A DNA stretch of 64,000 nt, from the NCBI GenBank assembly GCA_021807105.1, contig JAKAPL010000005.1, positions 6,178 through 70,177 on the forward strand, written 5' to 3'. This stretch comes from Myxococcales bacterium. Its GTDB lineage: Bacteria; Myxococcota; Myxococcia; Myxococcales; JAKAPL01. The translations under genes were made by a program, and so were the position numbers. This document shows, in pieces, positions 17,790-59,177 of the stretch (position 1 is its first letter; the number at the start of each line of letters is the position of its first letter). The notes below the pieces were generated by a model. It had not been told where the DNA came from and searched no databases. It saw nothing but the letters and a program-made list of their open reading frames with translations.

Positions 17790-18077
17790 CAGGGCCGCGG
17801 CAAAGAGCTTGTGAATTAATCCCCGGACCGAGCCAGGCCGTCGAGACGGGCCCCAGATGCGAGGCGCGGCAACGAGGCATACTCACTGGAGTATGCCGCA
17901 GTTGACGAGAACAAAGAGCCCGGATCGGCGGTCTGGCGACGGGAGGGGATTTGATTCACAGGCTCAAAGTCGTGCAGCGAGCGAAACTTTGATGAGGAAA
18001 CCAGGAAGCTAGGAAGAAAAACCTCCCGGGTTCCTTATAGGCGAGGTTCGCGCACCGCGACTTTGACCTAGGCCGTG
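17790..18077. mobile_element. Older MITE (family E), IS4-like ends, interrupted by MITE A1
   Basis: After removing A1 the ends read CAGGGCCGCGGCAAAGTCG and (reverse complement) CACGGCCTAGGTCAAAGTCG; flanked by a 10-bp direct repeat GCGGTCGATC at 17780-17789 and 18078-18087. Confidence 0.7.
17805..17965. mobile_element. MITE family A, copy 1 (161 bp)
   Basis: TIR GAGCTTGTGAAT / ATTCACAGGCTC, 3-bp TSD AAA on both sides, central hairpin GGCATACTC-ACTG-GAGTATGCC; near-identical inverted copy at 26538-26702. Confidence 0.9.
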
Positions 18078-18095
18078 GCGGTCGATCGTTTTTCG

Positions 18096-18124
18096 TTGAC
18101 ATCGCCCGCCGGTGAACGTAGATG
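18096..18124 (+). promoter_or_regulatory. Candidate sigma70 promoter for the riboswitch leader
   Basis: Perfect TTGACA at 18096-18101, only a weak -10 (GTAGATG) 16-17 bp downstream, about 25 nt before the aptamer. Confidence 0.4.
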
Positions 18125-18146
18125 GCGCGCGTTGGTTGGCGGAACA

Positions 18147-18306
18147 CTCGTTAGGCGAGGCGTCCGCGCGAACAGAGGCCACTGCCCCGCAACGACGAGA
18201 GTCGCCAAGGGGTAGACCAGGGCTTGCCGGCTTAAGGCTTGCTCTAACGTGGCTGAGGATCGAGGTGGGCCCTCTACGTCGCGCGGTGCTGAAGCTCGAC
18301 TTGGAG
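18147..18306 (+). ncRNA. M-box (ykoK leader) Mg2+-sensing riboswitch
   Basis: Colinear match to the ykoK leader consensus: CUCGUUAGGCGAGGC...CUGCCCC...CGCCAAGGGGUAGACCAG...UAAGG...UAACGUGGCUG...GUGCUGAAGCUCGAC. Confidence 0.88.
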
Positions 18307-18355
18307 CAGGCGCCGTCCGGGACCCGCGCGCGGGCTCCCGGGTCGCGAGGCCTGG

Positions 18356-18536
18356 GAGGCTGGTGTGAAATGGGTGGCGTCGCGAGAAAGCCGAGACCGG
18401 GGCGAGACGGGCGCCCGGGGAGTGAGCAGCACAAACGTACTCTTTGCAGTCCTACGTTGAGCAGCGGAGCGACGAGGCCGCCCGTCGCGGCGAAGGGATC
18501 GACTTTCGCAGCAGGCAGCCATCTCACACCAGTCTC
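18356..18536. mobile_element. MITE family B, copy 1
   Basis: TIR GAGGCTGGTGTGAAATGG / CCATCTCACACCAGTCTC; flanks CTGG (decayed) and CTAG; homologous to four other copies in the window. Confidence 0.9.
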
Positions 18537-18540
18537 CTAG

Positions 18541-18652
18541 GAGACTGTCGGGTAAAAACGTAACCCATTGAAATGAGACCTGCGGAGAAACGCCACATGC
18601 TGAGTCATTTCGATGCCTTGCGCGATCCTGAATTTATTTCTCCGACAGTCTC
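18541..18652. mobile_element. MITE family C (112 bp)
   Basis: TIR GAGACTGTCGG / CCGACAGTCTC, flanked by CTAG at 18537-18540 and 18653-18656; AT-richer interior. Confidence 0.85.
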
Positions 18653-18670
18653 CTAGACGTGGAGGAGGTC

Positions 18671-20161
18671 GTGTCTGGTCGTTTTCGGCTCGGCGCCGGC
18701 TGCCGTGGGTTCACCCTTCGGGTGGCGCCGGTGGCCTGCCTCGCGCTCCTCGCCGCCGCGCCGGCGTTCGCGCAGACCGCGCCGCCGGGGCCCCACGAGG
18801 AGGATGAGTTCGACTTCATGCACTGGCTCGCGGATCGCGGCCTGCACGATCTCGAGGACGAGAGCTGGAACGCGTACGGCCAGTTCACCTGGATCCAGCA
18901 GCTCAAGCCGCCGTTCCCCGCGAAGTACACGAACCTGAACGGGAGCAACCACTCGCTCCTGCCGACCCGGGAGTGGAGCTTCACGGGGACCGCGACCCTC
19001 TACTTCGGCGTGCGGCTCTGGAAGGGCGCGGAGGGCTACGTCGTGCCGGAGGTGATCTCCGAGCACCCGCTCTCGGATCTGTACGGGCTGACCGGCGCGA
19101 TCCAGAACTTCGAGCTCCAGAAGGGCGGCAGCGACGTCCCGCAGGCGTACCGCTCGCGCGCCTACGTGAGGCAGACGATCGGCCTCGGCGGCGGGGAGGA
19201 GCACGTCCCATCCAACCCGATGCAGCTCGGGACGACCTACGACCGCCGGCGTCTCGTCCTCGTCGCGGGCAGCTTCAGCGTCCTCGACTTCTTCGACCGG
19301 ACCCCCTTCGACATCGATCCGCGCCAGGGCTTCTTCAGCCTCGCCTACCTGACCTATCCGGCCTATGACTTCGCCTCCGACGCGCGGGGTTATTCCTGGG
19401 GCGGGGTCGTCGAGCTCGACTGGGACGACTGGGCCGTTCGCTACGCCCGGATCACCCCCCCCGCGGAGCCGAACCAGCTCCCCGTGGACTTCCGGCTCTG
19501 GGAGTACTACGGCGACCAGATCGAGCTGGAGCACGACCATCGGCTCTTCGGCCGGGACGGCAAGGTCCGCATCCTGGGCTACCACACGCGGGCGATCATG
19601 GGCCGCTTCGCCGACGCGATCTCGGCCTTCGAGGCGGACCCCCAGGAGAACGCGGCCGACTGTCCCGGCTTCAATTACGGCTCGCTGAACGCGCACGCCC
19701 CCGACCTCTGTTGGGTCCGCCGGCCGGACGACAAGTGGGGGATCGGCCTGTACGCCGAGCAGTACGTCGCCCGCGACATCGGCCTCTTCTTCCGTGGCAT
19801 GTGGGCCGACGGCCAGAGCGAGGTCGATGCCTACACCTCGGCGGACCGCTCGCTCTCGTTCGGGGCGCTCGGCAAGGGCGCCCTCTGGGGGCGGCGCAAC
19901 GACGTGACGGGGGTGGGCGTGAACGGGAGCTGGATCTCCGCCGTGCACGCGGCCTACCTCGCGCTGGGCGGCGTCGATGGCTTCATCGGCGACGGGGCGA
20001 TCACCCCGGCGCCCGAGCTCACCGGCGACGTCTTCTACAGCTTCGAGATCCTCTCCTCGATCTGGCTGTCGGCCGACTTCCAGCACATCGTGAACCCGGC
20101 GATGAACGCCGCCCGCGGCCCCGTCGAGGTCTTCGGAGCGAGGATCCATGCGGAGTTCTGA
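18671..20161 (+). CDS. OprB-family porin, MnoP-like (candidate divalent-cation porin)
   Basis: Signal peptide (...AAPAFAQ), YFGVRLWKGAE, PEV, RAYVRQT, YDFASDARGYSWG, C-terminal ADFQHIVNPAMNAARGPVEVFGARIHAEF ending in Phe; start uncertain (18659/18671/18722). Confidence 0.8.
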   Translation: MSGRFRLGAGCRGFTLRVAPVACLALLAAAPAFAQTAPPGPHEEDEFDFMHWLADRGLHDLEDESWNAYGQFTWIQQLKPPFPAKYTNLNGSNHSLLPTREWSFTGTATLYFGVRLWKGAEGYVVPEVISEHPLSDLYGLTGAIQNFELQKGGSDVPQAYRSRAYVRQTIGLGGGEEHVPSNPMQLGTTYDRRRLVLVAGSFSVLDFFDRTPFDIDPRQGFFSLAYLTYPAYDFASDARGYSWGGVVELDWDDWAVRYARITPPAEPNQLPVDFRLWEYYGDQIELEHDHRLFGRDGKVRILGYHTRAIMGRFADAISAFEADPQENAADCPGFNYGSLNAHAPDLCWVRRPDDKWGIGLYAEQYVARDIGLFFRGMWADGQSEVDAYTSADRSLSFGALGKGALWGRRNDVTGVGVNGSWISAVHAAYLALGGVDGFIGDGAITPAPELTGDVFYSFEILSSIWLSADFQHIVNPAMNAARGPVEVFGARIHAEF

Positions 20162-21254
20162 CGCCACGACGGCCGTCCCCGTCCCTCCCGAGGAGGCGCT
20201 CCTCGATCCGAGCCGGGAGGCGGCGGCAGCCGGCGAGCTCCCTGACCTCGCGCCTTCCGTGAGGCCCGGGAGCCCGCGTCGCGGGCGGCTCCGCGTCCTG
20301 GCGGTGGCCGCGCTCGCGACGCTCGCCGCCGGCCGCGCGTCCGCGCAGGCGGCCGCCCCGGGCTTCGCCCTCGACCGGTTCGTCCCTGCCCCCGCGGGCG
20401 CGGGCTGGTTCGCGAACGACGACCTCGCGATGGCGGGCTCGCTCGGCGGGGCGGCCGAGCTGACGCTCTCGCAGGCGCACGATCCCCTCGTCGTCGGCCA
20501 CGGGGCCGGGCGGCTCCCCGTCGTCTCGGACGAGGCGCTCGCGCACCTCGGGGCGTCCGTGAACGGCCCCTGGTGGCGGCTGTTCCTGGACCTTCCCATG
20601 CCGCTCGCCGTCGTGGGCCGGTCCGGCGTGCGGGACGGTTACGCCTACACGGCCCCGGCGGTGAACGTCGGCACCAACCCGGACAGCCTGCCGGACGTGA
20701 GCGTCGGGGTCGAGGCGCGCCTCCTCGGCGAGGCGGATTCCGGGCTGCGTCTGGGCCTGGGCGCCCAGCTCTTCGTCCCCTCGAACGGTCCGCTCGACAC
20801 GCCGTCGACCTACCTGACCGACGGAACGGTCCGGGGGATCGTCCGGTTGCTCGCGGCGGGCGACGCCGGCCGCCTCCGCTGGGCCGGCCAGGCGGGGGTT
20901 CACGTCCGTCCGCTCGACGACGCGCCGATCCCGGGGAGCCCCGAGGGCAGCGAGCTGCTCTTCGCCGGCGCGGCCGGTTGGAGCTTCGACGTGCGCCCGG
21001 GCTGGGCGCTCGTCGCGGGGCCGGAGGCGTTCGGGGAGACGGCGCTGCGCTCCTTCTTCGGCGGGGAGACGACCGGCGCGGAGGCGCTCCTGACCGGGAG
21101 GCTCGAGGGAACGGGTCCGGGAGCGCGGCTCCGCGTCAAGCTCGGCGCGGGAGGCGGCCTCGACCCCGCCTTCGGGGCCCCCGAGTGGCGCGTCGTCGTC
21201 GCGGTGGAGTTGTTCTCGCGTCCCTCCGGGACCGCGGGGGCGGGACCGCGTTGA
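20148..21254 (+). CDS. Putative outer-membrane beta-barrel protein (resembles the N-terminal barrel of myxobacterial OmpA-like proteins)
   Basis: Signal peptide ending ASAQA, GFALDRFVPAPAGAGWF, amphipathic beta-strands, FGAPEWRVVVAV end; start may be GTG at 20259. Confidence 0.65.
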   Translation: MRSSDATTAVPVPPEEALLDPSREAAAAGELPDLAPSVRPGSPRRGRLRVLAVAALATLAAGRASAQAAAPGFALDRFVPAPAGAGWFANDDLAMAGSLGGAAELTLSQAHDPLVVGHGAGRLPVVSDEALAHLGASVNGPWWRLFLDLPMPLAVVGRSGVRDGYAYTAPAVNVGTNPDSLPDVSVGVEARLLGEADSGLRLGLGAQLFVPSNGPLDTPSTYLTDGTVRGIVRLLAAGDAGRLRWAGQAGVHVRPLDDAPIPGSPEGSELLFAGAAGWSFDVRPGWALVAGPEAFGETALRSFFGGETTGAEALLTGRLEGTGPGARLRVKLGAGGGLDPAFGAPEWRVVVAVELFSRPSGTAGAGPR

Positions 21255-21414
21255 CGGACAAACGAAATCCGAGACGCGATTCCCCGTAGGGAGCCCGCGA
21301 GGCGCACAGGCAGTCTTCGTCGAAGGCGTACTGAAGTACGCCGAGACGGAAACTGCCGAGCACCGAAGCACCGGCCGCGTCGGACCGACCGAGAGTAGGC
21401 GCAAAAGGGCTAAG
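21255..21414. repeat. Decayed hairpin element (family F), host of MITE D
   Basis: GCGAGGCG (21297)...GGCAGT...GGCGTACT-GA-AGTACGCC (21325-21342)...ACTGCC...GCACCGAAGCA; same core as families A, B and D; termini not resolved. Confidence 0.55.
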
Positions 21415-21652
21415 CCCGGCTTATTCACGGTACGGCGTAGCGAGGCGTTCGAGACCGCAGCCGAGAAGGGCAAGCGCAGCGACGACCGACGAGGCGTGCT
21501 GAAGCACCTCCCCCCAAGTCGTTGTAGGGGGGCAAGCCCCCCGCAGGAGGAAGGAGCGAGCACACCCCCCCAAGTCGTTGTAGGGGGGCAAGCCCCCCCC
21601 TTCACAGGCGCGGGATCGGACGCCGCAGCAGCCGGGCCGTGAATAAGCCGGG
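21415..21652. mobile_element. MITE family D (238 bp) with IS1380-type ends
   Basis: Perfect 16-bp TIR CCCGGCTTATTCACGG / CCGTGAATAAGCCGGG; 5-bp TSD CTAAG; first 14 bp identical to the IS1380 left end at 25008. Confidence 0.92.
21510..21598 (+). repeat. Two identical 33-bp REP-like units inside MITE D
   Basis: CCCCCCAAGTCGTTGTAGGGGGGCAAGCCCCCC at 21510-21542 and 21566-21598; contains GTAG followed by a G/C hairpin. Confidence 0.8.
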
Positions 21653-21657
21653 CTAAG

Positions 21658-21760
21658 CCCGAGACCGGTCGACCGTGTCGTCCCCCGCAAGGCCACGATC
21701 TCCCGTGTCGCGCGGGTCAGGGGCGTCAGGAGCGTCGGCTTCGAATTGGGGACCAGCATG
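21658..21760 (-). pseudogene. 5' stub of a gene cut by the MITE D/F insertions
   Basis: Strong RBS AAAGGAGAAGG a few nt before an ATG near 21760 on the minus strand; the reading runs into MITE D after about 100 bp; frame not firmly established. Confidence 0.3.
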
Positions 21761-21849
21761 GTGCCTTCTCCTTTGTCAGTGGACCGCTTGATTGCGGCCC
21801 ATACCCCTATAAAAATGCAGTCCGTGTGCCACTCGGAAGCAGCGTGATT

Positions 21850-22905
21850 TCAGGGTGTTGCCCCGTCGCGGAACTCGATGACCGTACGGAGTCTGGTCGA
21901 GAGTCCAGGATTCGTGGACTCGGGCTCCTCCGCCCCGGCCGTGGGCCGCAGCCCAACACGCGTGCAGCAGGCTTCGCTGGCCTGACGATGGCCGGACTCG
22001 ACGTGTCGCTGGCCGGACTGGAAGAGTCGATGGCCGGACACGTCGAGTCGCTGACCCGACTCGACGTGTCGCTGGCGAGACTCCTCAAGCCCCTGGCCGG
22101 TCTTGACGTGTCGCTGGCCGGTCTTGACGTGTCGCTGGCCGGACTCGACGTGTCGCTGGCCGGTCTCGACGTGTCGCTGGCCGGTCTCGACGTGTCGCTG
22201 GCCGGTCTCGACGTGTCGCTGGCCGGTCTCGACGTGTCGATGGCCGGACTCGACAAGTCGATGGCCGAGCCCGACGAGTCGATGGCCGAGCCCGACGAGT
22301 CGATGGCCGAGCCCGACGAGTCGATGGCCGAGCCCGACGAGTCGATGGCCGAGCCCGACAAGTCGATGGCCGAGCCCGACGAGTCGATGGCCGGACTCGA
22401 CGAGTCGCTGGCCGAACTCATCGAGTCGCTGGCAAGGCTCGACGAGTCGCTGGCAAGGCTCGACGAGTCGATGGCCAGGCTCGACGAGTCGCTGACCCGA
22501 CTCGACGAGTCGCTGGCCGAACTCATCGAGTCGATGGCCGGACTCGACGAGTCGATGGCCGAGCCCGACGAGTCGCTGGCCGAGCCCGACGAGTCGCTGG
22601 CCCGACTTGACGAGTCGCTGGCCCGACTCGTCGAGTCGCTGGCCGGACTCGACGAGTCGCTGGCCCGACTCGACGAGTCGCTGACCCGACTCGACGAGTC
22701 GCTGACCCGACTCGACGAGTCGCTGGCCCGACTCGACGAGTCGCTGCCCGGACTCGACGAGTCGCTGACCCGACTCGACGAGTCGCTGGCCGGACTCGAC
22801 GAGTCGCTGGCCGGACTCGACGAGTCGCTGGCCGAGCCCGACGAGTCGACGGCCGGACTCATCGCGCGGGCGCGCGGGGCGCGCGGTGACGGACGATTCC
22901 GCCAA
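21850..22905 (-). CDS. Possible heptad-repeat protein (GQRLVES)n encoded by the array
   Basis: Many unit-to-unit substitutions are silent in this frame (GGC/GGT/GGG, TCC/TCG/TCT, CTC/CTT); no clear RBS; may be non-coding. Confidence 0.3.
   Translation of the reverse strand: MAESSVTARPARPRDESGRRLVGLGQRLVESGQRLVESGQRLVESGQRLVESGQRLVESGQRLVESGQRLVESGQRLVESGQRLVESGQRLDESGQRLVKSGQRLVGLGQRLVGLGHRLVESGHRLDEFGQRLVESGQRLVEPGHRLVEPCQRLVEPCQRLDEFGQRLVESGHRLVGLGHRLVGLGHRLVGLGHRLVGLGHRLVGLGHRLVGLGHRLVESGHRHVETGQRHVETGQRHVETGQRHVETGQRHVESGQRHVKTGQRHVKTGQGLEESRQRHVESGQRLDVSGHRLFQSGQRHVESGHRQASEACCTRVGLRPTAGAEEPESTNPGLSTRLRTVIEFRDGATP
21988..22863. repeat. Tandem array of about 42 units of 21 bp with palindromic core
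   Basis: Consensus CTGGCCGGACTCGACGAGTCG with strict 21-bp phase; core GACTCG-A-CGAGTC is a perfect inverted repeat; at least three frames stay open across it. Confidence 0.95.
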
Positions 22906-23320
22906 GCGCCATGCCGGCGCGGACCGGGTTCAGGTCGCCATAGCGCATGACGGTCAGTACGTGGCGGCCGCTCGCGTCCGGCTGGATCATCGGCGACTTC
23001 ATCCGCTGCGTGACGACCTGCCCGCGACAGCTTTGCTGCTGCTGGTTGTACCAGCGGGCGAAGAGGTGGTTCACGACCTGCCAGAAGCGGCTGAACTCCT
23101 CCTGGCCGCGGGTCGCGACGACGACGAGGTGCGGGTGGGTGCCCATGAGGCAGTAGGAGCGGACGAGGATGCCGTGGCGCGGGGCGTACTTGGCGACGAG
23201 GGAGAGGAAGCAGCGCTTGGCGAGGTCGTCTTCGAGGACGCGGGAGAAGTTGTGGCTGCGCCATGTACAGTGGTTGGTGGAGCCGAGGTCGACGAGGAGG
23301 CGGCGAGGGATGCGGGCCAT
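22859..23320 (-). pseudogene. REP-associated tyrosine (Y1/HUH) transposase, RAYT-like, C-terminally truncated
   Basis: MARIPR start, HCTWR, YCLMGTHPHL (HUH), RYGDLNPVRAGM (catalytic Tyr and NPVRAG); the usual downstream WSS motif is absent. Confidence 0.8.
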
Positions 23321-23838
23321 GGCTGCCGCCCAGGGGCAAGCATCGTGCCGACCTACCGAGTGATCCATAGAGCGAGGGTCTGACATCGGTGGGGAGAAAT
23401 GGGCCACCGGACGATCGAGACCGGGGAGAACTCGTCCGTCACCGGAGGCCCGGGTAGTTGCGCGCGATCTCGCGTGCCTCGCGCGGGCCGCAGCGCTCCG
23501 CGGCGCTTGGCGGAAACGGCCTGGGGCCGCTTCCAAGGAAGTGCCCCAGGGTCTGCACCGGCGCGCGCAGTTCGGACGACTCGAGATCGCGGCTATCTCC
23601 ACGTCCTTGCTGGAGAATCCGGTTGTCCGTCACCGTCTCCCCCCGTCTCCCCCCCCGCTGGTCCCACCGCCCCTGTCGCTCCGATCGCCCCGTCTCGCCT
23701 CTCTCGCCTCCGGACCCGGTCGCCCCGCCGGTCCGCCGCAGGCGTCAACGCCACCCACGGCCAAGATTCCGGCGGCAACGCCGATGCCAACCAAGACACG
23801 ACGTCACAATAATCTGTCTTTCCGCAATCCAGCCATCG

Positions 23839-25002: not shown

Positions 25003-25114
25003 CTGAACCCGGCTTATTCACCGTAAAAAGCGAAGAAAAGACGACGCGCCGCCTCGGAAGCGTGGTAGGACAAGGTTTCCACGCCATTGTCCGGCACGCA
25101 GAAGGAGGCGCGTC

Positions 25115-26539
25115 ATGGGTGAAGACCTAGCACTCTTTCCAGTCGAGTTCAACGGGTCCTTGAAGGTCGAGGCTCGGGCCGAGCGGCTTTCCGGGGAGGC
25201 TGGGGCGGTGATCCTCCGGGAGGTCATCGAACGGCTTGGCATCGGTCGGTTCCTGGCCGATCGGATCGAGGATCCGCGGAATCAGGATCTCATCACCCAC
25301 CCGCTCATCGAGCTGCTCCAGACCGAGTTGCTCATGCTCGGCCAGGGCTGGCACGACCGCGACGACGCGGATGCCCTGCGCGACGATCCGGTGATGCGCC
25401 TTGCGGTATCCGAGCGGCGGGGGATCGCGCCGCTGCTCTCGCCGGGGTTGCCGGAGGGGAAGCCGAAGCCGAAGAACCCACGGGTCCCCGACGGCCTCGC
25501 CTCGCAGCCGACGCTCTCGCGCCTGGGGCGCTCCCTGGCTACGGATGAGAACCGAGCGGTGCTGCGCGAGGCGTTACTCGTCACGGCGGCGCGGCGGATC
25601 AAGGCCGAGCGCGGCGGACACCGGATGCGGTACGTGACGATCGACGTGGACAGCCTGCCGGTGGAGGTCGAGGGCCATCAGGAGGGCAGCGAGTACAACG
25701 GCCACTACCACGCCCGGATCTTCCACCCCCTCGTCGCCTCCATTGGCGAGACCGGCGACCTGCTCGACCTCCGACTGCGCAGGGGGAACGCGCATACGGC
25801 CGCGGGGGCGCTCGACTTCATCTTGCCCTTGCTCGATCGGGTCGAGACGGAGCTGTGCCAGGTGGCGTCCGTGCGCATGGACGCGGGTTTCCCGGAGGAG
25901 AATCTGCTCTTCGGAATGGAAGAGCGGCGGAAGTGGACGCCCTACGTCGCCCGGGTGAAGAACAACCCGATCCCGGATCGGATGGCCGAGCCCTACTTGC
26001 GGCGTCCACCCGGACGCCCGCCCGAAGAGCCGCGCACCTGGTTCTACGAGATGACCTACATGGCCGAGAGTTGGTCCCGCCCTCGGCGCGTGGTGCTCGT
26101 CGTCCAGGAGCGGCCGGACGAACTCTTCCTGCACCACTTCTGGCTGATCACCAACTGGGACGAGAGCCAGATGCCCGCCGACGAGCTTCTGGAACTCTAC
26201 CGCGATCGCGGAGCAGCGGAGGGCCACTTCGGCGAGCTGATGAGCGTGCTCGCGCCCGCGCTGTCGTCCTCGCCCCGGCAGAAGAGCCACTACCGTGGCA
26301 AGCCACCCGAGACGAAGATCGCCCCCGGCGACGGCTTTGCCCAGAATGAGGTGATCCTGCTCGTAAACGCCCTCGCCTACAACGTCGCCCACGCCGCGCG
26401 CGTGCTCGTGGAGACGGCCACCGGCGAAGGCTGGAGCCTGATGCGGGTGCGCGAGCGGCTGCTGCGGGTGGCCGCGCGCGTGCTCGTCCATGGCCGCCGG
26501 GCCATCCTCGTCATCAACGAGGTCTCGGCGCGGCTCTGA
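25115..26539 (+). CDS. IS1380 transposase, last 16 aa lost to a MITE insertion
   Basis: LASQPTLSRL, TIDVDS, YNGHY, LRRGNAHTA, VRMDAGF, YRDRGAAEGHFGE; the TGA is created by the MITE A2 junction. Confidence 0.9.
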   Translation: MGEDLALFPVEFNGSLKVEARAERLSGEAGAVILREVIERLGIGRFLADRIEDPRNQDLITHPLIELLQTELLMLGQGWHDRDDADALRDDPVMRLAVSERRGIAPLLSPGLPEGKPKPKNPRVPDGLASQPTLSRLGRSLATDENRAVLREALLVTAARRIKAERGGHRMRYVTIDVDSLPVEVEGHQEGSEYNGHYHARIFHPLVASIGETGDLLDLRLRRGNAHTAAGALDFILPLLDRVETELCQVASVRMDAGFPEENLLFGMEERRKWTPYVARVKNNPIPDRMAEPYLRRPPGRPPEEPRTWFYEMTYMAESWSRPRRVVLVVQERPDELFLHHFWLITNWDESQMPADELLELYRDRGAAEGHFGELMSVLAPALSSSPRQKSHYRGKPPETKIAPGDGFAQNEVILLVNALAYNVAHAARVLVETATGEGWSLMRVRERLLRVAARVLVHGRRAILVINEVSARL

Positions 26540-26702
26540 GCCTGTGAATCAATCCCCTCCCATCGCCAGACCGCCGATCCGGGCCCATCTGCTTCGTTGC
26601 GTCAACTGCGGCATACTCCAGTGAGTATGCCTCGTTGCCGCGCCTCGCATCTGGGACCCGTCTCGACGGCCTGGCTCGGTCCGAGGATTGATTCACAAGC
26701 TC
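26538..26702. mobile_element. MITE family A, copy 2 (165 bp)
   Basis: TIR GAGCCTGTGAAT / ATTCACAAGCTC; 3-bp TSD TCT; inverted relative to copy 1. Confidence 0.92.
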
Positions 26703-26985
26703 TCTGGAGCGCGCTCTGGTCGAGGCTCGCGGCCATGCGCTTCGTCGAGGGCTGACCCCAGCCCTCTTTGCACAGCCCCAAGCTCTCGCCGCGCCGGACG
26801 CGGGGCGAGGCCGTGTGCCGCCAACCGCATTCGGCCGGCTCACAACGCCGCCCAACTCCCAAATCAAGCCGCGAGAGCAACTCGATGCACGCACATCCAG
26901 CCATCGATAACCTCCTCCACCCGCTCCGCTGCCCGCCCTTCGGTGCCCTACGCTCGCGATCCAGGTACGGCGTGAATAAGACGGG

Positions 26986-27375: not shown

Positions 27376-27462
27376 TGGCAGTTAAGCTTCGAGTAGGGCT
27401 GTAGCGCCCGACCGGCCACCGTCGCGGCGAAACGTTTCCGCGTGGCGAGGGACTAACGAGGC

Positions 27463-27936: not shown

Positions 27937-28251
27937 TCCGCGCGAGGTCCCGCCCCACGACCCCCGAGGCTCCGCTTCCGCGTGAAGATTCGGCGATGGG
28001 CCTCGCGGACGACGAGGTGCGACGGGGGCTGGACTCTCCTCCCAGCGGATCGTCGTGAGGCGATCCGGCCGTCGCGGCGCGGGAAGGCAGCGTGGCCGCG
28101 CCGGGGCTCCCGGTCCTCGGAGGCCGCGCTGTCAGAGGCTCGCGGTATAGGAGCCCCCATCCGTCCGTGATCGAGGCCGTGCCTCCATAGAGGCGCGGCC
28201 CCGGCCGGCGAGAAGGGCGCACATGCGAGGCGTGACCGAGCGAGGATCAGA

Positions 28252-32410: not shown

Positions 32411-32589
32411 GAGACTGGTGTGAAATGACTGCCTGCTGCGAAAGCCGATCCCTTCGCTCGCGACGGGCGGCCTCGTCGCTTCGCTGCTCAACGTACTGCA
32501 AAGAGTACGTTTGTGCTGCTCACTCCTCGTGCGCCCGTCTCGCCTCGGTCTCGGCTTTCTCGCGATGGCACCCATTTTACACCAGCCTC
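32411..32589. mobile_element. MITE family B, copy 2 (179 bp)
   Basis: GAGACTGGTGTGAAATG / CATTTTACACCAGCCTC; CTAG TSD on both sides, the left one containing the aspS stop codon. Confidence 0.92.
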
Positions 32590-32760
32590 CTAGTGTCCTG
32601 TCCGGCAAATCCCTTGGGATTCGAGCGCCCCCGGCCCGCCCCGGCGATGTTGCGCTCCCTGTGGCATACTTCAGAGAGCATGCCTGGGTCGCGCGCCTTG
32701 CCGGGACGGCCCAGGTTTGCTCTCGGTGCACAAGGTAGTTCTCGGACAGGACACTAAGAC

Positions 32761-46186: not shown

Positions 46187-46195
46187 GGCCGAAGG

Positions 46196-47330: not shown

Positions 47331-47509
47331 GAGGCTGGTGTGAAATGGCTGCCTGCTGCGAAAGCCGAACCCTTCACCGCGACGGGCGGCCTCGTCGCTT
47401 CGCTGGTGAACGGATTGCCAAGAGTACGTCTGACGCTGCTCACCCCTCGGACGCCCGTCTCGCCGCGGTCTCGGCGCTCTCGCGACGGCACCCATTGCAC
47501 ACCAGCCTC
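47331..47509. mobile_element. MITE family B, copy 3 (179 bp)
   Basis: GAGGCTGGTGTGAAATGG / CCATTGCACACCAGCCTC; CTAG TSD on both sides; lies between divergent genes. Confidence 0.92.
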
Positions 47510-48913: not shown

Positions 48914-50313
48914 GGAGGGCGGCAGGAGCGGCGCTCGCGGGCGCCTGGGCCGTCCTCGCGGCCTGCGGGGTCTCTCCGTCGGGCGCGGCTTGCCCGCAAG
49001 GGACCGACGAGGTCTCCGGGCTCTGCGTCTGCTCGACCAACGACGGCTGCCCCGCCGGCGAGGCGTGCCGGGACGGCGGCTGCGCCTGCGCGAGCGACTG
49101 GTGCTGCCCCGCGGGCTACGCCTGGGACGCGGACGGCGGCGCGTGCGCGTGTCAGGCCGACGCCTGCTGCCCCGCGGGCTACCGGTGGGATCCGGAAGGG
49201 AACGCCTGCGCCTGCGCGGCGAGCGCGTGCTGCCCCGTGGGGTTCCGTTTCGACCCGACCGCGGGCGAGTGCCTCTGCGCGGCGGACGGCTGCTGCCCCA
49301 TCGGCACCGGCTGGGACCCCGTCTCCGAGACCTGCGCCTGCCAGAGCGACTCCTGCTGCCCGTACGGGTTCATCTATGATCCGACGCGGCAGAACTGCAC
49401 GTGCGGCGCGGACTCCTGCTGCCCGCCCGACCACACGTTCGACCCCGGCGCGCGCGCCTGCGTCTGCACCGGCGCCTCCTGCTGCCCGCCGGGCTTCTCC
49501 CGCAACGGGAGCCGCTGCGTCTGCACCTCGGACGCGAGCTGCGGGACGGGCCAGTTCTGCGACGCGACCTCCGGGAGCTGCCGGTGCAAGGACGACACGG
49601 GCTGCCCCGCCGGCTACTTCTGCAACGGCGCCGGCTCGTGCCAGTCGCTCTCCGGCTGCACGACGAGCTTCGACTGCCCCGCGGGCTACTTCTGCGACAC
49701 GCGGGGACCCGTCTGCTCGAAGGCCGGCTGCACGATGGATTCGCAGTGCGCCTTCGGCCAGATCTGCGACCCCGACGGCGGCGCGTGCGGCCCCGGCTGC
49801 CGCTCCACCGCCGACTGCCCGCTCCAGCTCTCGTGCCAGGACGGCCGCTGCGAGAGCTTCTGCACGGACAACGACTTCTGCCCGCTCGGGGACTGGTGCA
49901 ACGACGCGTCCGGGGCCTGCTACTCGAATGGCACCAACTACTGCGTGATCCCGGCGTGCGGCTCCTGCGCCCAGCCGGGCTGCGCCTGCTCCGAGGGGGC
50001 GACCTGCCTGGAGAGCATCATCGAGGGGCAGACCACCGCCTGGTGCGCGCAGCCGTGCACCGTGCAGAGCGACTGCCCGAGCGAGTTCGACTGCACGCCC
50101 ACCCTCGCCGCCTGCTGCGACAACCCCGAGAACGGGACGGTCGACATGTGCAGCGCCTACGAAGGGACGCCGTGCCCCGACGGGACGATCTGCCACGGCT
50201 GGAGGACGGTGGACGAATCGCTGCCCCAGTACCTGTGCACCGACCAGACGACGAACCAGCCGAAGCTCTACCAGGCGTACTGCTCGCCCAGAAGCGGCTA
50301 CTGCTCGCAATGA
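48910..50313 (+). CDS. Cys-rich repeat lipoprotein
   Basis: Lipobox LAAC; about seven C-x-C-x4-CCP-x-G-aromatic repeats followed by Dickkopf/EB-like Cys repeats; ATGA coupling to the upstream gene. Confidence 0.8.
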   Translation: MRRAAGAALAGAWAVLAACGVSPSGAACPQGTDEVSGLCVCSTNDGCPAGEACRDGGCACASDWCCPAGYAWDADGGACACQADACCPAGYRWDPEGNACACAASACCPVGFRFDPTAGECLCAADGCCPIGTGWDPVSETCACQSDSCCPYGFIYDPTRQNCTCGADSCCPPDHTFDPGARACVCTGASCCPPGFSRNGSRCVCTSDASCGTGQFCDATSGSCRCKDDTGCPAGYFCNGAGSCQSLSGCTTSFDCPAGYFCDTRGPVCSKAGCTMDSQCAFGQICDPDGGACGPGCRSTADCPLQLSCQDGRCESFCTDNDFCPLGDWCNDASGACYSNGTNYCVIPACGSCAQPGCACSEGATCLESIIEGQTTAWCAQPCTVQSDCPSEFDCTPTLAACCDNPENGTVDMCSAYEGTPCPDGTICHGWRTVDESLPQYLCTDQTTNQPKLYQAYCSPRSGYCSQ

Positions 50314-50355
50314 CGGCGGAGCAGGCGCGTTCGGGAGGAGGGCCGCTCCCGCCCT

Positions 50356-51474: not shown

Positions 51475-51477
51475 GGA

Positions 51478-53084: not shown

Positions 53085-53090
53085 GCGGCG

Positions 53091-53531
53091 CTACGGATGC
53101 CTGGCCAGGTAGTCCGCGATGACCTCGTCGAGGCTCTTCTCGCTCGTGAGGTCCTCGGCGAACAGCGTCTCGCCCCCCGTCGCGGCCGCGGGGCCGGCGG
53201 TCGCGGGCCCCGGCGCGTGCAGTTCACCCGGCTGGAAGGAGCGGGCCGCGGCCGGCCGGCGCGCATCGAAGGCCCCCGAGACGAGCCGGCGGAGCATCTC
53301 CTTGTGCTGCCGCTCCATGACCTCTCGCACCCGGCGTTCCAGGTCCGGGCTGCCGAGGAACGCCCCGTAGCCGGTCTTCTGCGAGGCGAGGATGTTCCCG
53401 CCCACGAAGAGGTGGGTGATGACGTGGGGGTTCTCGACGCCGGAATCCTCGGTCTGGACGTGATAGACGCGCCCCTGGTACTGGACGTTGTGGTTGAAGC
53501 CGGCGACCATCTTGCGCGGGGCGGGGGCCAC
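53091..53531 (-). CDS. Conserved hypothetical protein
   Basis: GFNHNVQYQGRVYHVQTEDSG...HLF...MERQHKEMLR and KSLDEVIADYL; resembles a family I recall from Deltaproteobacteria; start 53531 or 53511. Confidence 0.75.
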   Translation of the reverse strand: MAPAPRKMVAGFNHNVQYQGRVYHVQTEDSGVENPHVITHLFVGGNILASQKTGYGAFLGSPDLERRVREVMERQHKEMLRRLVSGAFDARRPAAARSFQPGELHAPGPATAGPAAATGGETLFAEDLTSEKSLDEVIADYLARHP

Positions 53532-53632
53532 GCCGCGACCTTAGCCGCGCGGTTCGGCCTGGGCAAGCCCGACCGGCTTGGCCAAGCGCCCCAGACGTTG
53601 ACCCCCTGGAGGCGGCCGGGTTACGAGGGCGC

Positions 53633-54706
53633 ATGAAGAAGATCGCGGTCATCCCAGGGGACGGGGTCGGCCCGGAGGTCATCGCCGTCGCGGTCCGCGC
53701 GCTCCAGGCCGTCGATCGGGCGCGCGGGCTCGGCCTCGAGCTCGTCCCGTTCGACTACGGCGCGGAGCGCTACCTTCGGGACGGCGTGACCTTGCCGCCG
53801 GGCCAGATCGAGGACTTCCGCGAGAACTACTCCGCTATCCTCCTCGGGGCGATCGGCGACCCGCGCGTGCCGGACAACCGCCACGGCCGCGAGATCCTCC
53901 TGGGCCTGCGCTTCTCGCTCGATCTCTACGTGAACCTGCGTCCGGTCCGGCTCCTCGCCGAGCGGCTCTGCCCGCTCAAGGGCAAGAAGCCCGCCGACGT
54001 GGACCTCGTCGTCTTCCGCGAGAACACCGAGGGGCTGTACGCGGACGTGGGCGGCATCTTCAAGAAGGGGACGCCGGACGAGATCGCGGTCAACGAGGAC
54101 GTGAACACGCGCAAGGGGGTCGAGCGGATCCTCCGCGCGGCGTTCGCCTGGGCGAAGGCGCACGGCAAGGGGCGGGTCTGCATGAGCGACAAGGCGAACG
54201 CGCTCCGCTTCGCCCACGATCTCTGGCAGCGGGCGTTCCGGGAGGTCGGCGCCGACTACCCGGGGATAGAGAAGCGCCACCTGTACGTGGACGCGCTCGC
54301 CATGAAGCTCGTGGAGACCCCGGAGGCCTTCGACGTGATCGTCACCTGCAACCTGTTCGGGGACATCCTGACCGACCTCGGCGCTGCGCTCGTCGGGGGG
54401 CTGGGCCTCGCCGCCTCGGCGAACCTGAACCCGGATTCGCGGACGCTCGCGGGGATGTTCGAGCCAGTCCACGGATCGGCGCCGGACATCGCCGGGAGGG
54501 GGATCGCGAATCCGCTCGCCGCCGTCTCCTCCGCGGCGCTCCTGCTCGACGCGATCGGTCATGGCCCCGAGGGCGCTATCCTGGAGCGGGCGGTCGGGAG
54601 CGCGGTTGCGCGAGGGGTGCTCACCAGGGACGTGGGAGGCGAGGCGAGCACGGCGGCGGTCGGGGACTTCGTCGTCGCCGAGATTGAGAGAATCGTCCGG
54701 GCCTGA
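53633..54706 (+). CDS. leuB: 3-isopropylmalate dehydrogenase / isocitrate-isopropylmalate dehydrogenase family
   Basis: IPGDGVGPEV, NLRP, RENTEGLY, DKANAL, NLFGDILTD, FEPVHGSAPDIAG; substrate specificity not certain. Confidence 0.8.
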   Translation: MKKIAVIPGDGVGPEVIAVAVRALQAVDRARGLGLELVPFDYGAERYLRDGVTLPPGQIEDFRENYSAILLGAIGDPRVPDNRHGREILLGLRFSLDLYVNLRPVRLLAERLCPLKGKKPADVDLVVFRENTEGLYADVGGIFKKGTPDEIAVNEDVNTRKGVERILRAAFAWAKAHGKGRVCMSDKANALRFAHDLWQRAFREVGADYPGIEKRHLYVDALAMKLVETPEAFDVIVTCNLFGDILTDLGAALVGGLGLAASANLNPDSRTLAGMFEPVHGSAPDIAGRGIANPLAAVSSAALLLDAIGHGPEGAILERAVGSAVARGVLTRDVGGEASTAAVGDFVVAEIERIVRA

Positions 54707-54811
54707 TCGGCTCCTTCCGGGATTGCTCGTGCCGCGCGGTGATTCAGCGATGCTTAGGCGAAGACTCGGGGGCGGGAGAGGGCGATCGGCCACGGTGGGG
54801 CGGGAGCCCGG

Positions 54812-55462
54812 TTGATGCGCTGGCAGATCTTGCTCGCGGGGGCCGCCGCGGCCTGGTTCCTCTTCCGCAGCCTGCCGGCGGCGCTGCTCTTTGTCTCCCC
54901 CGGACTGCTCCGCTCCCGGGAGACCGACGACGACGGCTCGCTCGATCCGGCACGCGAGCCGGCCATGGAGCGGGTCGCGCGCGCGCTCGCGGAGCTCGGT
55001 TTCGAGAAGATCGGAGCGATCGAGGTCCGCCCGCCGCTCTCGGCCCCGTCGGCCGACCTCGTCTGGGCATCGACGGGAAAGCGGGCCTTCGCCGACGTGG
55101 CCGCGCGGGGAGGCCGGATCTCGGTGACGTTCTTCTCGCCGTTTCCCGGTGGCCGCGCCGTGCTCACGTCGGACTTCCGCCGGCCGTCGGTCGCGCACGA
55201 GGGCTACCTCGCGGGCGGGCTCGCGGGCATCGATGTGGCCGAGCTGTGGGCCGTCCACCAGCGCCGGGTCGAACATTTCCGGCCTCCGGCGGCGCCGTGG
55301 ACGGACTTCACCGCCGCGGGCCGCGTCCGGGCGGAGGAGGCCGTCCTCCTCGGCCCCGGACGGCGCGACCTGCGGCGGCGCTCGGCGGGCGCGGCGATCG
55401 TCGCGCTGTTGGCGCTCGCCGTGCTCGCGGTCAGCGTCCTGCAGCTCGTGAGGCTCGCCTAG
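54812..55462 (+). CDS. Hypothetical membrane protein
   Basis: N- and C-terminal hydrophobic helices; GC3-rich codon usage. Confidence 0.65.
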   Translation: MMRWQILLAGAAAAWFLFRSLPAALLFVSPGLLRSRETDDDGSLDPAREPAMERVARALAELGFEKIGAIEVRPPLSAPSADLVWASTGKRAFADVAARGGRISVTFFSPFPGGRAVLTSDFRRPSVAHEGYLAGGLAGIDVAELWAVHQRRVEHFRPPAAPWTDFTAAGRVRAEEAVLLGPGRRDLRRRSAGAAIVALLALAVLAVSVLQLVRLA

Positions 55463-55641
55463 GAGGTTGGTATGAAATGGGTGCGGTCGCGAGAAAACCG
55501 AGACCTAAGGCGAGACGGGCGCCCGAGGAGTGAGCAGCGGAAACGTACTCTTTGCAGTACGTTGAGCAGCGAAGCGACGAGGCCGCCCGTCGCAGCGAAG
55601 GGATCGGCCGTCGCAGCAGGCAGCCATTTCACACCAGCCTC
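55463..55641. mobile_element. MITE family B, copy 4 (179 bp)
   Basis: GAGGTTGGTATGAAATGG / CCATTTCACACCAGCCTC; CTAG TSD, the left one containing the upstream gene's stop codon. Confidence 0.92.
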
Positions 55642-55845
55642 CTAGCCGGTCCGGCGACCGGCGCGGGATCCTGGACGTCACGGGGGCGGGGAGTTGGGAA
55701 AAAGCGATTGCCCTCTTCCCGCCTCCCGGCCTCTTGGCCTTCCACGGAGGCGAGCCTCTCCCTGGTGAACCCCTGCGCCGGTCATGGTGGCGAGGGGCCG
55801 ATGGTCCGGGCGCCGACCGTCCGGTAAGCTGCACCGCCTCGCCCG

Positions 55846-58416
55846 ATGACCACCGCCCTCCTCGCCCTCCTCCTGCACGCGGCGCCGCTCCTTCCGGCGG
55901 AGCCGATCCACGTCGCCGCCGACCGGATGGCGTATGGCCAGGGATTCGCCCGCGCTACGGGGCACGTCACGGTCACCGGGCCGGGCTTCATCCTGCACGC
56001 GCCCGCGCTCACCGAGGACACCACGCGCCGGAGGCTCGACATCGAGGGGCCCCTCTTCGCGGTCGACGGCCAGAACCTGCTCCTCGCGCGGCGGGGGACG
56101 GTCGACCTCGATCGGGCGACGGTCGAGCTGTTCCAGATCCACCTCTTTCAGAAGGAGCTGGTGTCGGCCGAGGAGCTGGCGGCGGCGCGGACGGCGGCCG
56201 AGGCCCAAAAGCTCGGCGCGAACCGGATCCTCGTCACGGCCGATCACCTCGTGCGGCTCGGCCCCGGCCGCTACCGGCTCACCGGCGTCGAGCTGACGAG
56301 CTGCAAGTGCACGGGGGAGGGGCGCTGCACTCCGGCCTGGTCGATGGCCTCGCGCCGGGCCGACGTGGAGGCGGGGCAGGGCGCCTGGCTCGCGTGGCCC
56401 GCCTTCCGGATCGCCGACGCCGGGCTTCCCTTGCTGCGCCCGCCCGCGCTCTACCTGCCCCTCGCCGACCGGCGCACGGGGTTCTTGCTCCCCCACTTCG
56501 CCTGGCAGGTCCAGAACGGGGCCATCCTCGACGAGCCGTTCTTCCTTACCCTAGGGCCGAGCTACGACCTCACGCTTTCGGCGGGCTACGTGACCGGCCA
56601 GCAGGAGCTGATTCCCGCGTCGTCGGCGGCGGGGGCTCCGCTCGTGCCGGGGGGGATCGGGATCGGCGGCGTCCATGGCCCGCGGGCGAGCGCCGAGTTC
56701 CGTTACGCTCCCGCGCCGGACCTGGTCGGGCGCCTCTTCGGGAGCGTCCTGGATGACGAGAACCACGACTGGATCGCGACGCCCTCCGGCAAGTATCAAG
56801 GGTACGTCCGCGGCCCGCGCGCCTCGCTCCACTACTACCAGGTGCAGGGCGACGAGGGTCGGTTCGGCGATCGGCTCGACCTCTCGCTCGTCTCCGACGC
56901 GCGCCTGACGAGCCAGCTCACGACGGACATCCTCTTCGCGTCCATCCCCGCGACGCGCAGCGCTGCCCTCGGATTCTGGCGCGGCGACGACCTGCTGCTC
57001 TCCGCGGACGCCGTCTATTACCAGGACTTCCAGGGCTACTTCTCGCCCGAGAACGTCCACCAGGAGCTGTTCGGGCCGGGCGCGCCGGCGACGCTCGCGA
57101 CCGCGCCGCGACTCGAGGCGAACGTCCCCGATCGGCGGCTCGGCCCCTTCTGGCTCTCGGTCTCCTCGGAGGCCACCCACGAGGGCGCCCTCGGCCAGCC
57201 CTACGACCGGATCACCGAAGGCCCCCTCCCGTTCACCTCGCCGGATCTCGCGCTCGCGCCCTTCTCGCCGTGGCAGCCCGGCCGCGCGCCCGCCGATCGG
57301 CTCGACGTCGTCCCGGCGCTGCGCTGGCCCGTTGATCTCGGCCGCTTCGCGACCGCCTCGCTCCAGGCGTCGTTCCGCGAGGATCTCTGGTCCTTCGAGG
57401 ACGACACCCAGCCCGGCGGGACGAGCCTCGGGCAGTCCGGCCAGCGCGGCTACCCGATCCTCGACGGCGAGCTGGGGACTCGGCTGTCGCGAACATGGGA
57501 GTCCGGCTGGAGCCACGTGATCGAGCCCGAGCTGCTCGTCCGCGCGATCCCATCGATCGAGGCGAGCGGGCTCGTCCCGCCGCTCTGGATGGCGCCCTCG
57601 AATGGGTTCGTGTTCGACCACGCCACCGGCCTGCCGATCGCGACGTTCCTGCCTCTCCCCTACGACGAGATCGACTTCGCGCCGGGGTACGGCGCCACGC
57701 CGGCCACGGGCGCGCCGGGGATGCTCGTGCGAGGTGTTCTGCCGGAGGGCTTCGCGCAGGCCGAGCTGCACGTCGATCAGCGGCTGCGCGGGCCCGGCTT
57801 CTCTGGCCGCCTCGACTTCGGGGAGTACGTGGACCTGTTGGGCCCGGAAGGAACGTTCGGGCTGATCAAGAGCACCTTCGGCCCTTTCCACGCGAACGCC
57901 TACGCGCTCATCGCGAACCGCACCTTGCCCTGCCCGAACTGCAACGCAGGGGAGAGCGAGTTCCGCCGGCTCGAAGAGGCGAGCGGCGACGCCGGCTGGG
58001 GCGATACGCGCGGCGACAACGTCTCGGTCTCCTTCGCCCGCGCGCTGGCCGCGGGCTCGCTGCGGCTCGACTCTCCGCTCGACGCGCTCTTCGCCCCGCC
58101 CCTGCCGGCCGGTGACCCGCTCTGGGCGCTCCCCGACCTGACGCAGGTGATGGCCGCCGGGACCGCGCAGATCGCGGACGGGTTTGCCGTCCACGGCGGC
58201 GTCACCTATCTCTTCGCCTCGGGCGCACCCATCCAGATTCTCGCGGGCACGGGCTGGAAGTCATCCCAGGGGTGCCTCGCGCTGGACGCGAACCTCGTGT
58301 TCCAGCCTTTCTTCCAGCCCGCGGTCTCCGGCCAGCCACCCACCGCCCCGACGTTTGGTCTCGCTGCTTTCTTCGTGACCTTCGACCTCGGGGAGCTGGG
58401 CGGCGGGAGCCTGTAA
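55846..58416 (+). CDS. lptD: LPS-assembly protein LptD
   Basis: Signal peptide, OstA-like N-terminus (IHVAADRM, ATGHV), TSC...PAWS, RRTGFLLP, EPFF, HVIEP, barrel strands ending DLGELG. Confidence 0.8.
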   Translation: MTTALLALLLHAAPLLPAEPIHVAADRMAYGQGFARATGHVTVTGPGFILHAPALTEDTTRRRLDIEGPLFAVDGQNLLLARRGTVDLDRATVELFQIHLFQKELVSAEELAAARTAAEAQKLGANRILVTADHLVRLGPGRYRLTGVELTSCKCTGEGRCTPAWSMASRRADVEAGQGAWLAWPAFRIADAGLPLLRPPALYLPLADRRTGFLLPHFAWQVQNGAILDEPFFLTLGPSYDLTLSAGYVTGQQELIPASSAAGAPLVPGGIGIGGVHGPRASAEFRYAPAPDLVGRLFGSVLDDENHDWIATPSGKYQGYVRGPRASLHYYQVQGDEGRFGDRLDLSLVSDARLTSQLTTDILFASIPATRSAALGFWRGDDLLLSADAVYYQDFQGYFSPENVHQELFGPGAPATLATAPRLEANVPDRRLGPFWLSVSSEATHEGALGQPYDRITEGPLPFTSPDLALAPFSPWQPGRAPADRLDVVPALRWPVDLGRFATASLQASFREDLWSFEDDTQPGGTSLGQSGQRGYPILDGELGTRLSRTWESGWSHVIEPELLVRAIPSIEASGLVPPLWMAPSNGFVFDHATGLPIATFLPLPYDEIDFAPGYGATPATGAPGMLVRGVLPEGFAQAELHVDQRLRGPGFSGRLDFGEYVDLLGPEGTFGLIKSTFGPFHANAYALIANRTLPCPNCNAGESEFRRLEEASGDAGWGDTRGDNVSVSFARALAAGSLRLDSPLDALFAPPLPAGDPLWALPDLTQVMAAGTAQIADGFAVHGGVTYLFASGAPIQILAGTGWKSSQGCLALDANLVFQPFFQPAVSGQPPTAPTFGLAAFFVTFDLGELGGGSL

Positions 58417-58620
58417 GCGGAGCGCCGGCAATGGGGCTCGCCATGGAGCGTCCGCCGTGCGACGTCGAGCCGCTGGCCGCGCCCGGGGGCTCGCCCGTCT
58501 TCCGTGAGGGGGGGCGGGGAGGCCGAGCACGTCGCTGGAACCGCGGAAACACGGGGGAAGGCGTCGAGTTTCACCGCCCGTCTCTTGCGTCGTTGCAGCG
58601 GCAGGTTTACTGACGAACCC

Positions 58621-58977
58621 ATGACACCTTCGGTCTCGAGTCGGATCGGCGAACGGATCAGGTTCTTGCGGCTCCACATGCGCGGCGGCAAGCTAACCCA
58701 GGAGGATCTGGCCGAGCGGGCCAACATCAGCGTCTCGTTCCTGAGCATGATCGAGCGCGGCCAGCGGTCCGCGCATGTGGAGACGCTGAACAGCCTCGCC
58801 CGGGCCCTCGGCGTCACGATGTCCGAGCTGTTCCGCGAGAATCGCGCCCGGACCCCGAAGGGCCCCGACGCGATCGCCGAGCCGCTCGTCCGTTTCGTCG
58901 AGAATCGGCGGCTCAGCCGCCGGGAGGTCGAGAAGATCCTCGACGTCGCCGCCGCGATGTTCCCGCTGCGGCAGTGA
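58621..58977 (+). CDS. XRE-family HTH transcriptional regulator
   Basis: IGERIRFLR, LTQEDLAERANISVSFLSMIERG, LARALGV. Confidence 0.9.
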   Translation: MTPSVSSRIGERIRFLRLHMRGGKLTQEDLAERANISVSFLSMIERGQRSAHVETLNSLARALGVTMSELFRENRARTPKGPDAIAEPLVRFVENRRLSRREVEKILDVAAAMFPLRQ

Positions 58978-58999
58978 ACGACGCTCCCCGCAGGGCTAG

Positions 59000-59177
59000 G
59001 AGGCTGGTGTCCAATGGCTGCCTACTGCGAAAGCCGAACCCTTCGCTGCGACCGGCGGCCTCGTCGCTTCGCTGCTCAACGTACTGTAAAGAGTATGTTT
59101 CCGTTGTTCACTCCTCGGGCGCCCGTCTCGCCTCGGTCTCGGCGCTCTCGCGACGGCACCTATTGGACAGCAGTCTC
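59000..59177. mobile_element. MITE family B, copy 5 (178 bp)
   Basis: GAGGCTGGTGTCCAATGG / CCTATTGGACAGCAGTCTC; CTAG TSD, the right one containing the stop codon of the minus-strand protease gene. Confidence 0.9.

Follow-up and report, generated by a model that had tools for sequence, protein, structure and literature searches.

The textbook bacterial MITE (miniature transposable element with inverted repeats) is a worn-down copy of one insertion sequence (IS) and is defined by its ends. Correia elements (NEMIS) of Neisseria and the ERIC/IRU elements of enterobacteria are non-coding palindromic repeats that measure ~100-160 bp, carry terminal inverted repeats and make short target duplications; they are found at gene ends, and their interior, well kept even between distant taxa, folds as a long hairpin. 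Here we describe MITEs in a 64,000-nucleotide stretch of the genome of a Myxococcales bacterium (GenBank assembly GCA_021807105.1, contig JAKAPL010000005.1, positions 6,178 to 70,177; hereafter the window), in which the interior, a core of ~130 nt, is the conserved part and the ends are the exchangeable part, across the whole phylum. Whereas the Correia and ERIC elements have one kind of end per interior, the same core is found between 13 end classes across the Myxococcota and also without ends, and the accompanying target duplications vary (CTAG, 3 bp or 5 bp). In our judgement this is very probably one homologous, mobile core with many ends.

Two of the element families in the window, here called A to F, resemble described elements. 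Family D resembles IS1380-family MITEs in sharing its ends with an IS of the window, the presumed driver, and in making a 5-bp duplication; it differs from them in an interior that is not derived from the IS, that is homologous to the interiors of CTAG-flanked MITEs and that, as a variant, carries other ends in other genomes. Family B, with its 18-bp ends and CTAG, resembles MITEPye1 of Paracoccus yeei as that element is described (PMC11578231). MITEPye1 is a small element from an IS1182-family context with 18-bp terminal repeats, 4-bp direct repeats and a predicted fold; the passages of PMC11578231 devoted to it treat it as a defective IS and mention no core common to several end types. DUF772, the usual domain of IS1182-type transposases, had no match in the genome of the window. 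REP elements, as part of PMC3733652 presents them, are palindromic repeats of 20-40 nt that lie behind stop codons, sometimes giving TAG, and are sometimes clustered or tandem. The cores are likewise palindromic, lie behind stops and sometimes supply TAG or stand in tandem, but they measure ~130 nt against 20-40 nt per REP, and most of them have DDE-type terminal repeats and target duplications. A full-text search of the literature, with subscription journals and supplements outside its range, returned no core shared between bacterial end types and no description of such myxobacterial repeats; the part of PMC5217627 that came up names Anaeromyxobacter only for CRISPR and cytochrome motifs.

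The exchange of ends is best seen with the B interior. Of the order's 363 genomes, 75 have it (just two candidates were scored per genome for it), as do 16 in a sample of 151 Myxococcota genomes, five of these from other orders; the public labels of relatives with the same elements read Anaeromyxobacter, Anaeromyxobacteraceae, Myxococcales, Myxococcaceae and Polyangiaceae. Outside the genome of the window (G000; 3.76 Mb in 129 contigs, draft, 94.9% complete) the B matches end ~20 nt before either element end, and the alignments have a sharp boundary, the interior being 73-86% identical and the terminal 20-25 nt unrelated. The 105 distinct B-core copies gave 13 end classes, plus 23 copies without a detectable flanking inverted repeat, as sorted by an ungapped scorer for flanking inverted repeats that overlooked a few real ends (e.g. 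L069 and L082). The commonest end class was found in 26 genomes, several classes occur within single genomes (G123 and G040), and one locus of G040 (L085; G040:C1:4016743-4016874 plus flanks) is a natural chimera in which an A-type end, beginning AGAGGCCGTGAAAC, surrounds a B-type core. Similarly, the interior of D-short, which has the IS1380-type ends of element D1 and lacks its two mini-hairpins, is present in 21 of the 363 genomes; beyond its own genus (G001), only the match in G095 covers IS1380-type ends among the matches listed, and the other interiors have GAG-type, CTAG-flanked ends or lie without ends behind a stop codon. Family A differs, its ends travelling together with its interior in 15 of the 363 genomes. 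Plasmid and phage collections gave no match to B2.

The relationship between the interiors of different families was followed with a covariance model, R1, built only from 34 B-type interiors stripped of their ends, the cores coming from more than 25 genomes. Run on copies elsewhere in G000 (2,982 nt searched), R1 matched three of three D-short copies over its full length at 56.4 bits (E-value 1e-11), four of four copies of a further family, G, at 20.9-28.6 bits, three of three F copies at 19.9-25.1 bits and one further A copy at 19.7 bits. Sequence-only profiles, in which pairing is ignored and the control is the maximum over 30 shuffles per target, linked B to D-short (median 11.5 bits, shuffle maximum 7.8), B to G (median 13.2 bits, shuffle maximum 5.0), A to G (up to 19.6 bits, shuffle maximum 4.9) and A to E (7.2-11.9 bits, shuffle maximum 3.8), and the relative orientation was identical in every real profile match. 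The families thus form a chain of similarity, E-A-G-B-D-short, with F joined through the structure-aware model only. A scan of the whole window with R1 recovered the five B copies at 107-137 bits, whereas A1, A2, D1 and E1, at 15.1-17.7 bits, do not stand out from unrelated matches of 17.0, 16.9 and 16.8 bits. An earlier reading made from the letters of the window alone (the sequence-only reading) had assigned one structured internal core to MITEs with different ends; a likeness across families beyond chance holds at the family level, through copies elsewhere at 19.7-56.4 bits, and not for the A, D and E copies of the window, which lie amid the noise. No R1 match at E<=10 was obtained in the window scan for the MITE-like element C1, so the core is not carried by every MITE in the window. 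As a family marker, the word CCGATCC followed by GGTCTCG was tried and rejected (124 pairs against 38 order-swapped ones, the words being too common at ~2,000 each).

In folding tests on single strands with DNA parameters and 200 shuffles each, B2, A2 and D1 gave z scores of -6.0, -7.2 and -8.3, and no shuffle was as good for any of them. The elements of families A, B and E fold as simple rods; D1 does not, having a long terminal stem and a branched interior with two extra mini-hairpins. The two shared motifs of the sequence-only reading fared unevenly: A1, D1 and F contain the left one, the 8-mer GCGAGGCG, which is missing from B1, and the right one is exact in B5, in F and in the reverse complement of A2 and inexact in A1 and B1. 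The covariation that this reading called for was found. Among the 34 B-type cores, 94.7% of cells pair against 85.2% in shuffles, double-sided changes occur at 13 of 26 pairs against 7.8 +/- 1.2 in shuffles (none of 500 reached 13), and the covariation score is 0.272 against 0.108 in shuffles and at most 0.089 in slid-partner controls; with the tool used, related sequences can beat the shuffles even when they have no structure. Compensatory changes above the controls are what a structured nucleic acid under selection would show. Two internal loops, mutually non-complementary and pyrimidine-rich on the same strand, are 89-91% identical across the 34 cores, compared with 87% for the stems and 54% for the apical loop. 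In the 66 full B copies of G000, divergence from the consensus is 4.5% in the interior (positions 21-60), 9-12% in the ends and 58% in the flanks. No Rfam family matches the core: with Rfam 15, the window at gathering thresholds gave an M-box only, and six core-bearing loci gave no match at E<=1.

Family D is the one family with a resident IS, which allows the origin of its interior to be examined. The transposase of the IS at 25008-26985 belongs to the IS1380 family (NCBIfam NF033539, 269 bits against a cut-off of 180; Pfam PF13701), and the ends of D are the ends of this IS, so that at least one end class has been taken from a real IS. When D1 and D-short were compared with two copies of the IS, that of the window and one on another contig, they aligned only over the 15-18 bp tips and not to subterminal parts, and the D interior is therefore not derived from the IS. 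The covariation, the matches across families and this result together uphold the idea, put forward in the sequence-only reading, of a common structured core, with an autonomous IS partner found for the D ends only. Mobility is seen directly for A2, for which window position 26535 is joined to 26705 in DNA contigs of two sequencing runs, X2 and X3, and in a contig of the RNA library X7; this empty site shows A2 to be an insertion missing from some copies of its target. No empty-site joints for B or D were present among the rows listed. A2 lies in the transposase gene, and the stop codon that now ends the open reading frame (ORF; window 26537-26539) comes from the insertion; the transposase profile is matched as far as position 416 of 419, so that the interrupted protein may still be nearly complete.

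Copies of the core without ends show a distinctive placement. Of 16 such copies, 12 have a stop codon (TAG in 8, TGA in 3, TAA in 1) 0-5 nt before their start; the upstream open frame was traced for five of them, the other stops being read by eye and gene direction taken from codon-position G+C, and GTAG directly precedes the core in all five traced copies. At locus L019 (G040:C1:691716-692171), four bare cores stand in tandem with a period of ~108 nt, the first of them starting right at the upstream gene's TAG. Since bare copies lie mostly between convergent genes, their 'sense' orientation is uninformative. The bare copy of G133 is missing from the orthologous gene end in three of three genomes, and the four-core array of G040 is absent in four of five relatives, with approximately its first 35 nt left in the fifth, the closest relative. 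Their absence at orthologous sites marks the bare cores as recent insertions rather than conserved gene-end signals, and as they are not fixed they speak against a locus-specific host role. With respect to flanking genes, 76 B copies divide into 30 in tandem contexts, 8 in convergent and 2 in divergent ones and 36 that could not be typed. The tandem cases are split evenly (15 sense, 15 antisense), without the strand-specific placement of a cis- or trans-acting RNA, and this random orientation relative to genes speaks against a strand-specific RNA. Nor was a replication-strand bias of cores seen in G040 (5 plus against 6 minus, and 2 against 2 on the other half), in a tally made by eye with the origin assumed at position 0. 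Short contigs of the X7 RNA library, which holds 5% of sampled words and was available as contigs only, overlap B1 and B2; they carry no strand, end or level information and are possibly DNA.

We propose that the persistent unit is a discrete, self-folding module of ~130 nt, a long imperfect palindrome with stems kept through compensating changes, two conserved pyrimidine-rich internal loops and a variable tip. In the Myxococcota it occurs in three settings, namely bare behind stop codons at gene ends, in tandem arrays and, most often, between terminal inverted repeats of 20-25 nt. These repeats are of many kinds, among them the very ends of the IS1380-family IS of the window and GAG-type ends with CTAG or 3-bp TNA-like duplications. 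The ended elements would be ordinary non-autonomous transposons, mobilised in trans by DDE transposases that read the ends only, and the interior would be no remnant of those ISs but a shared cargo inherited from one ancestor and only rarely recombined with new ends, each resulting end class then spreading through many genomes. We infer a role of the core in cis as DNA: extrusion as a hairpin or cruciform would draw the ends of so very short an element together, and the conserved loops may bind a host protein, a role that would be independent of the transposase used and of orientation. This DNA-structure mechanism is offered tentatively, as a possibility, and the explanation as a whole appears to us about evenly poised between right and wrong.

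Several results weigh against it. Copy E2 reached just 7.6 bits with R1, and the direct link between A and B is marginal by sequence-only profiles (median 1.1 and maximum 12.1 bits, shuffle maximum 8.5). No autonomous IS with ends matching those of A, B, E, F or G was found in the draft G000, where a search for A, B, C, E or G ends paired 0.45-4 kb apart likewise found none. For the commonest end class there was no autonomous partner in G095, G035 or G153, the lone ends in G095 and G035 being remnants rather than ISs and the paired ends in G153 all lying ~177 nt apart, and for another class the complete genome G040 has no end pair 1-2 kb apart. ISs often fail to assemble in draft genomes; nevertheless, with the partner searches empty outside D, it is an assumption that most end classes come from ISs. 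Core identity is 85% within an end class across genomes (821 pairs) compared with 71% between classes within a genome (80 pairs). The cores thus cluster by end class and not by genome, which makes end exchange rare and old and followed by the spread of each class, and part of the apparent conservation of the core may be shared descent and horizontal spread. As to the mechanism, any palindrome would draw ends together, so this alone leaves the conserved unpaired loops unexplained, and the bare copies, which have no ends to synapse, are insertions too.

A bolder and rather improbable version makes the core an autonomous hitch-hiker that generates its own MITEs by fold-back copying of neighbouring IS ends. 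The core would sit at stop codons, and because several IS families have targets of similar sequence (CTAG, TNA and TA-type), ISs would often land beside it. A new strand would then fold on the rod, and hairpin-primed synthesis would copy the IS end as the opposite inverted repeat. One event would thus give the core, its asymmetry intact, a flawless new pair of ends with which it could be mobilised. If true, this would be an undescribed route to new bacterial MITE families.

Against the proposed mobile core with exchangeable ends stand several accounts that read the same observations differently. Similar gene-end roles have been proposed for REP and ERIC elements, and the core could be a host-useful RNA or DNA signal of this kind, an orientation-independent terminator or a protector of mRNA 3' ends, with the carrier MITEs tolerated or favoured. 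The avoidance of divergent (promoter) spacers by the B copies (2 of the 40 typed), the bare copies immediately past stop codons and mostly between convergent genes, the covarying stems and the X7 contigs over B1 and B2 would all suit such a signal, and a palindrome that functions both ways fits the lack of orientation bias. We nevertheless hold it unlikely: the bare cores are absent from the orthologous spacer in three of three genomes at one locus and in four of five at the other, a terminator needs no conserved unpaired loops, the X7 contigs are silent on strand, ends and level and their library may contain DNA, and there is no matching Rfam family. An account in which the core has no function has a similarly small claim. 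All families would descend from one old palindromic MITE whose ends gave way to others with the turnover of ISs, its pairing kept by arm-to-arm correction on folding and its copies homogenised by gene conversion. Clustering of the cores by end class agrees with this, selection for transposability alone can keep MITE lineages similar, and the B-end variants of G000, found on both arms and in mixed combinations, suggest exchange between arms or copies. Arm correction should, however, erase asymmetry, yet the non-complementary loops are among the best-kept columns of the 34 cores; an identity of 69% between classes over ~130 nt persists across orders of the phylum; and bare copies retain the core despite having no ends.

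The GTAG before every traced bare copy and the predominance of TAG among the stops they abut (8 of 12) recall REPs, and GTAG-tagged REPs are reported, in the portion of PMC3733652 that treats them, to give flanking genes TAG stops. The bare cores might accordingly be REP/REPIN-like or IS200/IS605-type palindromes moved by a Y1 transposase, with the ended forms secondary. This we regard as very unlikely, given a core of ~130 nt against 20-40 nt, the TGA and TAA stops that also precede bare copies, and Y1_Tnp matches in five genomes that are weak (best E-value 1e-5) and of which none of the eight fetched loci has a core, for which reason a REP/REPIN-RAYT system was rejected. Least credible of all is a chance likeness of GC-rich palindromes, or an origin of each interior by deletion from its own parent IS. 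The window does have a G+C content of 65-78%, unrelated sequences reach 17 bits with R1, and the A and E copies within the window stay inside that noise. Chance fails to account for the scores of the D-short, F, G and further A copies, for the four profile links (B to D-short and to G, A to G and to E) that outscored every shuffled and every reversed control, or for their constant orientation, and descent from a parent IS fails on the D interior, which cannot be aligned to two IS copies with the same ends.

Should a core that stays while its ends change promote transposition, the long-hairpin shape of so many MITEs would be accounted for; should it instead be an RNA or DNA signal at the level of the host, it would be a new widespread structured element of the Myxococcota. 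In either case, clustering by whole-element similarity in repeat annotation will wrongly merge or split these families.

Table 1. Mobile elements and other features of the window. Positions count from the first letter of the window; for elements, the strand is that on which the core reads in R1 orientation (pyrimidine-rich loops).
Feature	Position	Strand	Description
MITE A1	17805-17965	-	A-type ends beginning GAGCTTGTGAAT; 3-bp duplication AAA; R1 match 17828-17939 (-), 15.1 bits
MITE A2	26538-26702	+	3-bp duplication TCT; in 3' end of IS1380-family transposase gene; R1 16.6 bits
MITE B1	18356-18536	-	ends GAGRCTGGTGTGAAATGG; CTAG flanks; R1 129.9 bits
MITE B2	32411-32589	+	CTAG flanks; R1 137.4 bits
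MITE B3	47331-47509	+	CTAG flanks; R1 107.2 bits
MITE B5	55464-55641	-	full copy, variant left end; CTAG flanks; R1 137.5 bits
MITE B4	59000-59177	+	CTAG flanks; R1 130.2 bits
MITE D1 (long form)	21415-21652	-	IS1380-type ends beginning CCCGGCTTATTCACGG; CTAAG at 21410-21414 and 21653-21657; R1 17.7 bits, outer part
Mini-hairpins of D1	21499-21534 and 21562-21598		~35 nt each; G6/C6 stems; each after GCAC
Remnant F	~21295-21395	-	5'-truncated copy of family F
MITE E1	32591-32759	+	ends beginning GTGTCCTGTCCGG; adjoins B2; apex like that of A; R1 16.6 bits
C1, single-copy MITE-like element	18541-18652	n/a	GAGACTGTCGGG ends; CTAG flanks; core absent
IS1380-family IS	25008-26985	+	ends as in D; transposase ORF 25115-26539; A2 inserted
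M-box (magnesium) riboswitch	18140-18313		132 bits
OprB-family porin ORF	18659-20161		same strand as the M-box
Tandem array	21881-22800		21-bp period, at least 38 copies
Coding repeats, cysteine-rich unit	49017-49701		57-63-nt period, ~ten copies
Coding repeats, 141-150 nt	10195-12992		two blocks

The window contains two A, five B, one D, one E and one C element, a truncated F copy and the IS1380-family IS (Table 1). The elements are non-coding, measure 161-238 nt and have terminal inverted repeats, as MITEs do, and the 3-bp duplications of A, the CTAG of B (83-97% conserved in 66 copies) and the CTAAG of D1 are as first described. The A-end pattern has four matches in the window against 0.2 expected. 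The B ends pair into four copies; the fifth, B5, escaped the end pattern of the sequence-only reading through its variant left end. That reading called the ends of the families unrelated, which is right for D, E, F and G, which differ, but A, B and C all start with GAG and look like one broad type. Its remnant F proved real, a truncated copy of a further family whose full copies elsewhere are ~190 nt long, with ends beginning CTTGGGTTTCGCC and 5-bp TCNGA flanks. Counting only copies that reach at least 90% of the query length, G000 has 77 for B, 96 with the D-long query and 114 with the D-short query (the two D counts overlap), 10 for A, 2 for E and 1 for C, and families F and G have about a dozen copies each.

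Some smaller observations concern the structure of these elements. The B ends of the 66 full copies in G000 are polymorphic at positions 7-9 and 12-14, and a few variants recur on either arm, also in mixed combinations. D-long equals D-short plus the two mini-hairpins, and contigs of runs X2 and X3 hold D variants missing one or the other of them; the mini-hairpin may be a still smaller, nested insertion element. Nine B copies in G000 are split by a D element at the same point (~135/137 of 179; for example C100:19713-19968 and C3:5994-6242), 19 of 135 B matches end at this position, and CTTAG, the type of site duplicated by D, is present there in many B copies.

B1 and C1 (18356-18652) lie between the M-box riboswitch and the next same-strand ORF, which encodes an OprB-family porin, and thereby place ~300 nt of mobile DNA in the leader, where the expression platform of the M-box should be. 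Two sets of coding repeats are listed in Table 1. The 21-bp tandem array differs in copy number between strains, since 623 or 770 nt of it are missing from X2 and X3 contigs that pass over them.

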